From Podarcis vaucheri (taxonomy: Eukaryota), in NCBI GenBank assembly GCA_965113315.1, contig OZ220366.1: a DNA stretch of 64,000 nucleotides; one strand, given 5' to 3'. Every line of letters begins with the position of its first letter. Within the stretch, counting starts at the first letter, position 1. Shown piece by piece: positions 4,975 through 43,019 of this stretch. The notes under the pieces were generated by a model. The model was not told the origin of the DNA. It worked only from the letters and a program-made list of their open reading frames with translations, and ran no database searches. A program made the position numbers and the translations under genes.

Positions 4975-5062
4975 GTCAGCCTCAAAACATGTAGATAAAG
5001 ACCTTGGAAATATAGAGGAAAACAAAAAGTTAGAAGAAAACAATCACAAATCGGAAGCTTGA
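4975..5062 (+). CDS. ALCAM: ALCAM/CD166 last coding exon (cytoplasmic tail); the exon continues as UTR to 5094
   Basis: Acceptor tttgcattttag at 4974. Translates SASKHVDKDLGNIEENKKLEENNHKSEA*, matching the recalled ALCAM C-terminus (human TASKHVNKDLGNMEENKKLEENNHKTEA). Donor CAG|GTAGGT at 5095. ALCAM-CBLB synteny is conserved. Confidence 0.96.
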
Positions 5063-5687
5063 GATAGAGAACTTGTCAGTCACCACCATTCCAGGTAGGT
5101 GTGAACAATTTCATAATGTTGTCTATCTGTACTCTGTATATGATTTGAATGGCTTTTAGTCTCTGCATTGCTGAAGTGTTTGTAGTATTTACACATCAAG
5201 ATGAACCTAGGTTTATCTGCTCAACATTTGGAAGGCCTTCAGAAATGCTTTCAGTTGCTTGGGGCTTTCTGTGGTGTTATTTGAAAAACAAACAACGGTT
5301 ATCACCTCACCAAGAGACAAACTGTTATCAATAGAATCTTATCAATTGTTATCAATAGAATCTGCTATCAATAGAATCTATCTTGGACTTCCTAAGACCT
5401 CTAAGCACTTTAGCACCACACTGTTCACTAAAATAACACACACTATTCACTAAAATAACGGAAGCAACTCCAGGGCTAAGTATACTCCTGGGTGTCTTCT
5501 AGGTCAACCAGTGTGCCTGTTTTGACTGGATATGAACTCCTGGTTCAAACAGGCCACTCTGTCCACCACCAATCACTGCAATTTATCTATATGTCTCTGT
5601 ACACCAGGGGCTCAGTGCTATTTGTTTAATCTTTTTCTCGAAGGTCAAAAGTTTGAAAGAATATCTAGCCATGACAGATTACATGTA

Positions 5688-5862
5688 TCCAGTTACAGAT
5701 AGGTAGCCGTGTTGGTCTGCCATAGCCAAAATAAAAAAAATTCCTTCCAGTAGCACCTTAAAGACCAACTAAGTTAGTTCTTGGTATGAGTACACGTGTA
5801 TCTGAAGAAGTGTGCATGCACACGAAAGCTCATACCAAGAACTAACTTAGTTGGTCTTTAAG
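5688..5862. mobile_element. Short Penelope-like element (PLE) with inverted-repeat structure
   Basis: Starts TCCAGTTACAGATAGGTAGCCGTGTTGGTCTG. 34-bp perfect inverted arms at 5757-5790 and 5829-5862. Flanking direct repeat AGATTACATGTA at 5676-5687 and 5861-5872. Carries a hammerhead motif; related copies at 37707 and 42791. Confidence 0.75.
5796..5836 (+). ncRNA. Minimal type I hammerhead ribozyme (PLE-associated)
   Basis: GTAT-CTGAAGA-A-GTGTGCATGCACAC-GAAA-GCTC-ATAC: stem I GUAU/AUAC, core CUGANGA, palindromic stem II, GAAA, palindromic AGCU stem III. Cleavage predicted after C5831. Confidence 0.75.
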
Positions 5863-6588
5863 ATTACATGTAGGTTGTGCTACTTCAAAGCAGTAAGTTG
5901 GACTGAGTTTGTTCTGATGGCAGTTCTATACCACTGTGAAGAGACTTTCTTTTCAGAAGCCCTGTGCTAGCACTCTCCAGAAACAAAGTATGAATAGATT
6001 TTCGGTCCAAAAATACTCATTTCAGAATGAGTAACACTGGGACCAAGACTCAAGAGTTAGACTGTGTACATTAAAAGTACATCCTGGGCTAAGTGTAGTT
6101 TACCCCTTATAGAGCTGCAATTTCCAGCACACTTTACAATCTACAGTTACCAATATTTGAGGGTGGGGTGGGGGAAGGATGCTTTAATTGTATGCAAGAC
6201 AAAGAGCTAAGGCAAAAAAGAGAAGGCAGTCAATGTTTAGGAAAGCCTCAGGAACAGAGCCTCAGGCAACAGGGCCGGCACTGATCGAGGGCTTGCTCAG
6301 CACTGTCATGGCACCTTTATAACTTTTCAAAAGTCAGTCGAGAGATTCAAAACCTTTTATGATTTTGGAAAATATTTTTAAGACTTGCTGGCGAATTATA
6401 ATGCACTCTTCATTGTTGTGCATTTCACGGTGTTCTATGGTAGCCTTCATTTATTTCTTCCTTTTTTATTTTTATGGCATGCATTTTATGTGGGAAAACT
6501 AATATCCCTCGTCCCACCCACCCCCATTTGTGTATTATCATCAACATACAAGTTCATCTTGACTGACCTTGTTTTTTCTCATTTTCAG

Positions 6589-8410
6589 AGAATAAACATA
6601 GACCAACTGAAGCATGAACATGGATTGTATTTAAGATATATACAAAGACATGACAGCTATTCATGGTTCAAGTATTACACAGATCATTCTATCAAGTTTT
6701 TGGAGGAATTTACACAGTTATTTCAAGCTTACAAAAATATCAGCAAAACTAATTTTGGCGGCAGCCGTGATAATAGGTCACAAATTTGTGTTCTGTTTGA
6801 ATATCTTTTTTCCTTTTCCTTTTTCTTTTTTTGTAAATGTCTGCACTGAAGATTTCTTTTGGTTTGCCTTTATGTAAATTTTTTACGTAGCTATTTTTAT
6901 ACACTGTAAGGCTTTGTTCTGGGAGTCGCTGGTAATCTGATGTATAGTGTAATGTTTTTATTTCCATTGTTTTTTGCACCCTTTAAAGAGGTACATTTCT
7001 AATTCTGATTGCTATCAGTAAAGCTCTTACTTTGCACAGCAAGTATCTAATTTATAAGATTGCCTTATGGGAAAATGAGACACTTCTCTCTATGTTTTTC
7101 AATCACCACTAAAGGAAAAAGGGGGGAATAAATCTGTAAAAGAAAAATAAGTAAAAGCAAACTAACCGGTTTTTGAAATAATGAACACCTGCTCAACTAC
7201 AAAGGACATGTATATAATTTACAAAAGGAGAGTAAGGTATTAAACAAGATTCATGTTGTCATGTATACAGATGTCCTACTAACAAGTCTTTTTTAGACAG
7301 GAAAATCTTTTTATTGATAGCATTCTGGAAAACTAATTGTTATTGCAATTCCATGATATATAGTGTGAATGACTGAAATTAAGAATTAGTTCTGAAATAT
7401 TTTTGTTATCCACTGCCTTAAATATTATCTATCTTTTTATTTTAAAAGAAAAAAAGATCAGTTGAAATTGGAAGTTTTTGGGTTTTTTTAAGTGGTCATA
7501 TCAAAGCTGCATTTTTCCACAAAATAGAATATATATTTTTGTGTGTGTGCGTTTTTGTTAACTACACTACAGATATTGCACCTTGAGATAATTTTAGTGT
7601 TTTTAACTGGTACATAATTTATCAAAAAAGTACATGAAATTGTAACAATGAAATGAAATCTATGTATCTTTAGTTACATTCAAGATTGTAACTTTATAAA
7701 CCTGTTTTATGCTTGATAATTTTTTTAGAAAGTTAGCATAAAAAGAAACATTTGAATAGATCGGGGCAAATAGACAGCAGTATTTAGCAGTGCTCTTTTA
7801 GCGGAAAAATAGCATCTGGGAGAATGTGCTAGATAATTTTTGATAACGGCAGGAAAATATTACTGGAATGGAAGTTTCTGTTTACAGATTTACGAGCCAG
7901 GAAAACAGGAAGATTCTGTAGATTGTGGGGAGTTTAAGAAGAAGAAAAATAGAGATGGAAATTAGGAAATGTATTTTGCCACTTTGGGGGGGGGGAACAC
8001 TGTTGTAAATTTGTAAAATGTTAAATGTCTGGGCAGTAGTGACTGATGTCTTAAATAAAAGCTTCCTGTAGTGTACTGGCATGGATTAAATACATGAAAT
8101 GTCCTATAAATTCAATACTGTATAAAATATTACAGAAAAAAACTGTTAAAGTCCTCTCTGCATTGGTTAAGGCTTTATTTGGCAGGGGAACAAAAAAATT
8201 AATCTTGGTCAATGTTTAAACCAAAGTTAAAAGGGGGATAAAACCAAAGTCATTTGTTTTGCATGGCAAAGCCATTTATGATATCTTTGTAAATACTGTG
8301 GTTGTTTTTTTTCCTTTTCCTTTTTTTTAGAATTTTGTTTTTTTTTAAAAAAAATCTAAAATTTTTAAGCACCTGTTTTCCAAAATAAAATGTGAACACA
8401 CACAAAAAAA
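6589..8410 (+). other. ALCAM: ALCAM terminal non-coding exon (3' UTR)
   Basis: Branch-like CTGAC at 6563 and pyrimidine tract ending TTTTCAG at 6588. The start resembles the recalled human ALCAM 3' UTR (ATAGACCAA.TGAAGCATGAAC.TGGATTGTATTTAAGA). AU-rich with no recognisable transposons. 3' end approximate. Confidence 0.8.
8384..8389 (+). terminator. ALCAM: Likely ALCAM polyadenylation signal AATAAA
   Basis: AATAAA with U-rich sequence upstream and U/GU-rich TTTTGTTTTGGCGTG about 35 nt downstream. Confidence 0.7.
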
Positions 8411-17043: not shown

Positions 17044-17158
17044 TCATAGAATTGTAGAATTTGAAGGGACCACAAGGACCATCTTTTCCCCCAAGTAGGG
17101 CTTAAACCCATAACCCTGAGATTAAGAGTCTCATGCTTTACCAGCTGAGCTATCCAGC
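17044..17158 (-). mobile_element. tRNA-Lys(CTT)-derived short SINE with CR1-type 3' tail
   Basis: Minus strand GCTGGATAGCTCAGCTGGTAAAGCATGAGACTCTTAATCTCAGGGTTATGGGTTTAAGCCC resembles tRNA-Lys-CTT, joined to GGTCCCTTCAAATTCTACAATTCTATGA (CR1 terminus-like). Confidence 0.75.
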
Positions 17159-36761: not shown

Positions 36762-37706
36762 CTGCATTGAGAGAAAACTCATTAAATAAGCGAATCTTCA
36801 TTAATGCTATGATCAAAAGTGAATCTTAAAATTGATTTTCTCTGGCCAGGAAGAGAGGTGCTTCCTCCAAAGGTTTATCAAGGAGTTCAGTGACTCCAGT
36901 AATGAAATTGTGCATCATAAAAGTGAAGCTTCCAAACAACACTTAACGCATGCTGTGAATGACCTTTCGCTGTATCGTTTTTAGAAGTTTTCTCTGTGTT
37001 GTAAAATTATCTGTACATCTGCATTTGAGCTTTTGTGCATTGTGGGTTCAATGATGAATGCAGGATGAACTTTCTTTCAGGTGATTATGACAGATCATAA
37101 TTAAACCCATAAACAAGTACATATATGAATGCTCACATGAGCTGTAATTTTAGCACGCAGCATCACTACCAGGAAATGCTTATTGACAAGGCAAGGGTCT
37201 AAACAGCAAGAAGAAACATGGGCAGGATCCATGGACCTGTCAGCTCAATTCACTGAGCCATGGAACATCTTCAGTGGGAAAATGCAATGGCAGCAAACCA
37301 AGAAATCTTAATGACTTTAAAACGAACACCGTAATATAACGAAGTAGAATAAGGCTTGTGATGTCATTTCTTAAGAGCTTTTGAATTCCATTGTGCTTTT
37401 AAAACTTTGCTTTATGCAATAATCTTCTCACCTACAAATGTATTACTTAAGTTATAGCCTGGGTTACAAAGAATTATGTAGGGAAGTCCACGTGCAGGAG
37501 AGTAGTTCTTCCCTTCTAAAAAGCAGCACCTAGTATCATGCTAGAGTCATTTGTATTAAACTGTTTGACTACAAGATATTTTTGCTGTGCTACATTTTAG
37601 CATTTAAAATATAATATATCTAGTTGTATATGCATGTGTGTTCATTTATGTCAAGTTTAAACATATACACTATACCTACAATTTGTGGCATTGTTTGGTC
37701 TAATAT

Positions 37707-37829
37707 AGATAGGTAGCCGTGTTGGTTTGCCATAGTCAAAATAAAAAAATTCCTTCCAGTAGCACCTTAAAGACCAACTAAGTTAGTTCTTGGTATGAGC
37801 TTTCGTGTGCATGCACGAAATTTTTTTAT
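37707..37829. mobile_element. Short Penelope-like insertion with a truncated hammerhead
   Basis: Near-identical to 5697-5790; 13-bp TSD TTTGGTCTAATAT at 37694-37706 and 37830-37842. Confidence 0.75.
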
Positions 37830-42790: not shown

Positions 42791-43019
42791 TAGATTTAGG
42801 TAGGTAGCTGTGTTAGTCTGATGCAGTCGAAATAAAATTTTTAAAAATAGTCCAGTAGCACCTTAGAGACCAACTAAGTTTTTCTGGGTATTATATAAGG
42901 GTCTAGTGACTTCTGTTTTGGTGTATCTGAAGAACTGTGCATACACACAAAAGCTTATACCCACAACAAACTTAGTTGGTCTCTAAGGTGCTATTGGACT
43001 ATTTATTAATTTTTTATTT
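42791..43019. mobile_element. Older Penelope-like insertion with a degenerate hammerhead
   Basis: TAGGTAGCTGTGTTAGTCTG start; inverted arms TAGTCCAGTAGCACCTTAGAGACCAACTAAGTTT; 10-bp TSD AGACAAGGTA at 42781-42790 and 43020-43029. Confidence 0.75.

Follow-up and report, generated by a model that had tools for sequence, protein, structure and literature searches.

A young, doubly truncated Penelope-like element in a putative 3' UTR intron of ALCAM carries a hammerhead motif that is predicted to be self-masked

Minimal type I hammerhead ribozymes (min-HHRs) have been described from the Penelope-like elements (PLEs) of metazoans by Cervera & de la Pena (2014, PMC4209133), and also by Lunse et al. 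(2017), as cited in PMC6765202. According to the former account, these motifs have a full catalytic core, an extra nucleotide, a G10.1-C11.1 pair, a helix I of 4 bp and a palindrome at positions 15.2 to 16.2; they are located in the pLTRs of the elements and occur as thousands of dispersed solo copies, some of which form pairs on opposite strands. All of these features are shared by the locus studied here. As for activity, monomeric min-HHRs were reported to remain uncleaved and dimers to be weakly cleaved (PMC4209133; PMC6765202). The hammerhead of an anole PLE was reported to cleave only together with the PLE protein, and the same source describes RNA-seq ends as absent at the cleavage site (PMC11167929).

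The endonuclease-bearing Neptune and Nematis PLEs, as presented in PMC8557442, contain a single ORF that encodes a reverse transcriptase followed by a GIY-YIG domain, with a CX2-5CxxC linker that is also found in the source family of our locus. Their partially tandem pLTRs, inverted truncated pieces, one-sided tails and 12-bp TSDs have likewise counterparts here. The tail is described as 30 to 40 bp on one end of the element (PMC8557442; the mechanism is treated in PMC11167929), and 2 start sites for reverse transcription are said to define it (PMC11167929). Another PLE-related group, the non-LTR retrozymes, likewise consists of non-coding elements that bear hammerheads; in Xenopus, 42% to 44% of the retrozyme copies were reported to overlap introns, and 1 of 9 retrozyme dimers was cleaved (bioRxiv 10.64898/2026.07.22.740005).

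Self-cleaving motifs in sense orientation to host introns are known from CPEB3 (PMC10919898) and, according to de la Pena & Garcia-Robles (2010), from conserved intronic hammerheads in amniotes. The CPEB3 ribozyme cleaves in cis with a half-life of 2 to 3 min that is matched to an intron of about 10 kb, and it can tune expression (PMC10919898). According to PMC2995048, which cites Dye 2006 and Fong 2009, splicing proceeds across an intron cleaved by a hammerhead and fails only with a fast HDV ribozyme.

The window examined here is a stretch of 64,000 nucleotides from Podarcis vaucheri (contig OZ220366.1, assembly GCA_965113315.1). The exon with an open frame and splice consensus sequences at positions 4975 to 5094 on the plus strand is the putative last coding exon and would encode the C-terminus of ALCAM; its stop codon (5060 to 5062) is located 32 nt before the putative donor. 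Within the 80 kb preceding the window, an exon matched CD166/ALCAM (PDB 5a2f, E = 6e-35), and a transmembrane exon (L031:2304-2421) is in phase with the exon at 4975 to 5094. The CD166 match identifies ALCAM, on the plus strand, as the host gene. The putative last intron of 1,494 nt (5095 to 6588), the limits of which are set by the donor and acceptor consensus alone, lies entirely inside the 3' UTR, and is followed by a putative terminal 3' UTR exon (6589 to 8400) that begins at the acceptor consensus and contains AATAAA or ATTAAA hexamers at positions 6591, 7127, 7239, 8054, 8085 and 8384. The original prediction had placed a hammerhead in sense orientation to ALCAM, past the stop codon and within this intron, and both the CD166 match and the splice consensus agree with this placement. 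Local tandem duplications were also observed in the intron, with three 20-nt copies at 5320 to 5379 and two 21-nt copies at 5417 to 5459. Elsewhere in the window, a partial tRNA-like match on the minus strand (17094 to 17153, Rfam 31.8 bits) may correspond to the head of a SINE of tRNA origin.

The minimal type I hammerhead motif, as read from the core and recovered with a structural descriptor, spans positions 5798 to 5835 on the plus strand, and the cut would nominally fall between 5831 and 5832. Stem I consists of 4 bp, formed by the strands at 5798 to 5801 and 5832 to 5835, within the range of 4 to 5 bp for helix I in this class. The C3-A9 core (5802 to 5808) is followed by an extra A between positions 9 and 10.1 (5809), by a stem II region that is a perfect 14-nt palindrome (5810 to 5823, with G5810 and C5823 as the G10.1-C11.1 pair), by G12-A15.1 (5824 to 5827) and by G15.2, C16.2, U16.1 and C17 (5828 to 5831). 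The catalytic core (C3-A9, G12-A15.1, U16.1 and H17) is complete, and every element named in the original prediction was recovered on the plus strand, including a self-complementary tetranucleotide (5827 to 5830) that replaces a stable helix III. The descriptor matched only at 5798 to 5835 on both strands of the window and of the 80 kb upstream, and gave 0 matches in 100 dinucleotide-shuffled windows.

The bare 41-mer was predicted to fold into stems I and II, with a stability similar to that of shuffled sequences (z -0.44). Stem II of the monomer was predicted to contain 5 bp and a 4-nt loop; the palindrome had been recognized correctly in the original prediction, but not the proposed stem of 6 bp with a 2-nt loop. 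A search with Rfam, in which a hammerhead model had been suggested as a check, recovered no hammerhead in the whole window when the gathering score was applied, and none among the 15 matches obtained at E<=10 for positions 5600 to 6000.

The motif is part of a PLE insertion of 173 bp (5688 to 5860) that is flanked by a 12-bp TSD (5676 to 5687 and 5861 to 5872). The left arm (5688 to 5790, minus strand) is an inverted, 5'-truncated PLE end that begins at C16.2 of the hammerhead, and continues through the end of the pLTR, the first codons of the ORF and a tail that is present on this arm only. The right arm (5796 to 5862, plus strand) is a 5'-truncated sense fragment of the pLTR that carries the hammerhead and stops 27 nt after the core. 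The left arm was 94% identical to the junction of the pLTR and ORF of an apparently intact PLE in the same genome (L049), the right arm matched each of the two pLTRs of this element with 98.5% identity over its 67 nt, and the assignment of the motif to the PLE-type minimal hammerheads is borne out by these values. Between the arms is a 5-nt junction (5791 to 5795) that partially mirrors the start of the right arm. In comparison with the Neptune and Nematis elements, the window copy has no ORF beyond the first few codons, which remain in antisense orientation, and its right arm ends short of both clusters of element ends seen in the family. In comparison with the min-HHRs, it has no partner hammerhead in the 144 kb scanned, the inverted arm begins at C16.2 and so supplies the cut site in antisense only, and the perfect 14-nt palindrome of its stem II could also pair between molecules.

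The insertion would have arisen through target-primed reverse transcription in which a second piece was added in inverted orientation, a route that we infer from the usual footprint of PLEs. A 28-nt pattern across the junction occurred once in the genome, and the insertion in the window is therefore a one-off truncation product. A propagated subfamily of hairpins was rejected on the same grounds. The insert was also rejected as a non-LTR retrozyme: retrozymes, as described in the preprint cited above, are propagated units that are often arranged in tandem, whereas the junction in the window is unique and the loci of the family are variably truncated.

The exact 34-nt core of the motif was identified in at least 9,164 copies in the 1.61-Gb genome (4,592 forward and 4,572 reverse), with 0 matches to the reversed control. 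At locus L004, a GIY-YIG frame was located upstream of the motif, and a search with the adjacent frame, in which 150 of 2,639 candidates were scored, most of them with 93% to 99% identity, led to L049 (L049:2811-7399; G000:C25:3428001-3437500). This apparently intact PLE contains an open frame of 921 codons between two pLTRs that both bear the hammerhead, with a distance of 3,019 nt between the hammerheads. The frame encodes an RVT_1 domain (residues 449 to 597, E = 3.4e-12) and a GIY-YIG domain (residues 819 to 866, E = 3.3e-5), a CX4CxxC linker at residue 781, and a CCHH-like set (C825, C828, H848 and H864) that was read by eye without a reference alignment. A partial copy is located ahead of the full element in a partial tandem with 99.8% identity over 1,549 nt. 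By its domains, linker and tandem layout, the sequence of L049 fits the Neptune/Nematis type. Many copies have 97% to 99% protein identity, so that the family looks recently active. It was also observed that L049 is inserted in a LINE-like reverse transcriptase frame, and that a frame of 235 codons beside the family copy at L001 resembles, by eye, a Copia-type RT/RNase H fragment. The base at the cleavage site, position 5831, is C in the window copy and T in L049 and L050, and in three DNA-type runs T made up 13% to 25% of the family depth. This points to 2 subfamilies.

The variation among copies was examined at the first 30 exact core matches on contig C1, a non-random sample that represents 26 independent insertions after the merging of four overlapping pairs. 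An inverted arm over the cleavage region was present at 17 of the 30 loci and in 13 of the 26 independent insertions, and within a distance of 110 nt in 9 of the 26, indicating that this layout is a common by-product. Flanking direct repeats of 11 to 16 bp were identified at 21 of the 30 loci, and stem I was missing at 4. The loci were shortened to varied lengths; the element ends after the core formed two clusters, at 49 to 58 nt (9 loci) and at 84 to 95 nt (12 loci), about 35 to 40 nt apart, which matches the start sites of the PLE tail as reported in PMC11167929 and PMC8557442.

To place the insertion in time, we compared one run per organism, using the genome-type runs X15 (organism C), X17 (organism D) and X18 (organism A). 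Single contigs in X17 and X18 joined position 5675 to position 5861 across a single copy of the 12-bp TSD sequence, with flanks that were about 99% alike, and the site is empty in these 2 organisms. In X15, contigs extended across both junctions at the depth of the flanks, so that the insertion appears to be homozygous, and differed from the window at two positions in the flanks. Conservation at the orthologous site fails, as the site was empty in 2 of the 3 genome-type runs, and the insertion is young; its presence or absence can serve as a clean marker to tell close relatives apart. The intact core of the window copy and the apparent homozygosity in X15 could count against the view that the motif is inert, but the youth of the insertion accounts for both.

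The left arm also folds back over the cleavage site. Positions 5757 to 5790 pair perfectly with positions 5829 to 5862 in a stem of 34 bp around a 38-nt loop region, and this stem engages C16.2, U16.1 and C17 as well as the 3' strand of stem I. The original prediction was right about the motif itself, but missed the inverted left arm and the perfect stem that it forms over the cut site. The fold of 5760 to 5870 had a predicted free energy of -57.4 kcal/mol (z -10.6). In a folding model that takes no account of Mg2+, tertiary contacts, proteins or editing, and with the competent fold defined by forcing stems I and II and keeping the core open, the cost of the competent fold was 16.2 kcal/mol in context versus 1.2 kcal/mol for the bare motif. 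The predicted competent fraction was about 4e-12 and did not change when the context was extended from 106 to 601 nt. It was predicted to be already as low as 8e-6 when the RNA ends at position 5835, because the left arm is transcribed before the motif is completed, and the arm would be finished in about 0.5 s, given the elongation rates that PMC10919898 cites. At 12 family loci with an intact stem I and no inverted arm, the competent fold cost 1.1 to 6.4 kcal/mol. The cost at loci with a close fold-back was 34 to 62 kcal/mol, except for the tandem pair L029/L030 with values of 5.2 and 11.6 kcal/mol. Editing of adenosine to inosine in the 34-bp stem, which contains 22 adenosines, could loosen it.

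These results point to a course of events in which the left arm, made first, would need no more than about half a second to capture the cleavage site. The hammerhead would be a passenger of the pLTR, locked in an inactive state by the inverted arm in the ALCAM pre-mRNA. The hairpin would act as a short double-stranded RNA that is probably edited by ADAR and probably degraded along with the intron, which would be spliced out uncut and leave ALCAM unaffected. Taking the folding models at face value, we consider it highly probable that the insertion is a young, doubly truncated 173-bp stub of a high-copy, endonuclease-bearing PLE, predicted to mask itself and likely to be inert for ALCAM, although the lack of an effect on ALCAM is something that we infer. 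Compared with the ribozyme in CPEB3, the motif in the window would need a partner and is predicted to be masked; its distance to the acceptor is 757 nt, and close relatives lack it.

The family is transcribed in a relative. In about 12% of the RNA run X23 (organism A), 1,127 reads mapped to the repeat and 0 to the unique flanks, so that the reads stem from other loci; the DNA run from organism A is without the insert. Family RNA was present on both strands. Other letters than those in the window were observed at 18 positions, 10 of which were A>G or T>C, and 8 of these 10 were strand-asymmetric in the RNA (9% to 33% versus 0% to 1.4%; Fisher p 1e-3 to 1e-18), while reaching at most 0.6% in three DNA runs, which were obtained from other individuals. 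The A>G or T>C changes at 5732 and 5761 were DNA variants, as were 7 of the 8 positions of other types; an A>C change at 5737 was rare in DNA and strand-biased, which does not fit with editing. Provided that the library was stranded, which is not recorded, the asymmetry, noted over positions 5757 to 5862, is consistent with A-to-I editing of both strands of the element. Massive editing of Penelope in a lizard has already been reported, with inverted Penelope copies as the substrates according to that account (Porath et al. 2017, PMC5625713); family reads are likewise strand-asymmetric here, but they derive from other loci of the family and not from the ALCAM locus. No pile-up of molecule ends was seen in X23, a weak indication given that fragmented libraries lose such ends and that the organism is without the insertion.

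We considered whether the insertion could affect ALCAM in another manner, by supplying a poly(A) signal. The left arm contributes an AATAAA hexamer at 5730 to 5735 (plus strand), the only one in the intron, which otherwise contains one older ATTAAA at 6070. The hexamer was predicted to be unpaired (0.92 to 0.97), and its position past the stop codon means that the coding sequence is kept whole, so that its use would yield the full-length protein with a short and different 3' UTR. However, a GU-rich candidate downstream element (5770 to 5790) was predicted to be fully paired in the hairpin, an A-rich stretch is found at this place in every antisense copy of the family, and the hexamer is located 635 nt from the 5' splice site. 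Poly(A) sites at such a distance from a 5' splice site are usually suppressed by U1 snRNP. We regard the use of this signal as decidedly improbable.

It is also decidedly improbable that the hairpin itself is active, either as a precursor of miRNA-like molecules or endo-siRNAs directed against PLE RNA or by slowing down splicing. The perfect 34-bp stem, its z value and the complementarity of both arms to the more than 9,000 copies of the family would accord with such a precursor, and generic miRNA-precursor models matched the hairpin. These matches were the 15 obtained from Rfam for positions 5600 to 6000, all of which had scores far below the gathering score and were discarded as generic hairpin matches. 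Furthermore, the terminal region of 38 nt includes a further helix, and the fold-back is a frequent by-product of insertion in this family that is absent at this site in the relatives.

The original prediction had further proposed that cleavage, perhaps templated in trans by another PLE-derived RNA, would turn the insertion into an RNA switch that separates the coding sequence of ALCAM from its 3' UTR. No second hammerhead was found in cis by the descriptor in the 144 kb scanned, which comprised the window and the 80 kb upstream, with intron 1 covered up to that distance. Three relics of the family were recovered in the scan: a minus-strand copy at 37704 to 37816 that is cut within stem II, an older fold-back at 42798 to 43019 with a hammerhead that lacks G12 and G10.1, and a degenerate fold-back with an incomplete core in an earlier ALCAM intron, about 5.5 to 5.7 kb upstream of the start of the window (in L031). 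All three were dismissed as partners because their cores are truncated or mutated.

A partner RNA supplied in trans would have physical access to the insertion, since a 69-nt toehold (5688 to 5756) lies outside the perfect stem. In co-folds with 3 family RNAs, the sense partner paired over about 100 bp with the left arm and displaced the right arm in all 3 cases, and the duplexes were about 104 to 107 kcal/mol below the separate strands. The active co-fold that the proposal requires did not hold up as well. In each of the 3 best co-folds, the palindromic stems II paired with each other and the cleavage site of the partner was buried, and the active double hammerhead was located 32.6 to 34.7 kcal/mol above the best structure, as compared with 19.5 and 23.1 kcal/mol for unmasked control dimers. 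Since the controls are penalized too, the co-fold model appears to underrate active dimers in general, and the extra cost at this locus is about 10 to 15 kcal/mol. The value of 50.7 kcal/mol obtained when the insert was co-folded with the bare motif was dropped, as it was inflated by the pseudoknot-free constraint.

The complete core in sense orientation to ALCAM, the family RNA on both strands in the relative, the intact element in the genome, the activation of hammerhead cleavage by a PLE protein in vitro as reported in PMC11167929 and the precedent set by the intronic ribozyme in CPEB3 (PMC10919898) would nevertheless accord with a scheme in which sense PLE RNA invades the toehold, frees the hammerhead by displacing the right arm, stays tethered next to it and, with the PLE protein as a chaperone, leads to cutting of the coding sequence from the terminal exon. 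Besides the cost of the active form, it speaks against this scheme that the 3' splice site is transcribed 11 to 13 s after the cleavage site, which is the time that a second molecule would have to bind, that the site is empty in two relatives, that thousands of copies could titrate the partner, and that splicing tolerates slow intronic cleavage, as reviewed in PMC2995048, so that even a cut would not need to matter here. With at least 9,164 copies, predicted masking, no partner in the 144 kb, inactive monomers and slow dimers, the switch proposed for ALCAM is very unlikely under these models, and invasion of the toehold at this locus must be considered highly improbable. We hold it equally hard to believe that PLE stubs which fold back and bear a tail on one side are, as a class, toehold-gated ribozymes in which the transcript of the active element invades through the single-stranded tail, unmasks the hammerhead and keeps a partner next to it. 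If true, such gating would be a new way for retroelement RNA to cut host transcripts: the ALCAM pre-mRNA would be cut between the stop codon and the terminal exon only when the retroelement is expressed, and thousands of stubs would couple PLE activity to the cleavage of host transcripts genome-wide.

Under the preferred reading, that of a self-masked and probably inert stub, the presence of a complete ribozyme in a gene says little, given the more than 9,000 identical cores in the genome and the predicted self-masking of this copy. Nevertheless, the insertion lends itself to a natural test of the importance of PLE hammerheads in introns. The family, which is young, includes an apparently intact element of the Neptune type, and the in vitro work cited here was done with a Poseidon element. 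Among the matches listed in a literature search for ALCAM, hammerhead and ribozyme, the titles and the starts of the abstracts held nothing about this locus. This element could correspond to a family that already has a name, be it in a Repbase-type table or in the supplements of PMC4209133. Finally, five exact cores were observed in tandem at G000:C1:5631954-5632397 with a spacing of about 101 to 104 nt, in addition to the tandem pair L029/L030 (48 nt), and active dimers are more likely to be found among such tandem cores than at the copy in ALCAM.
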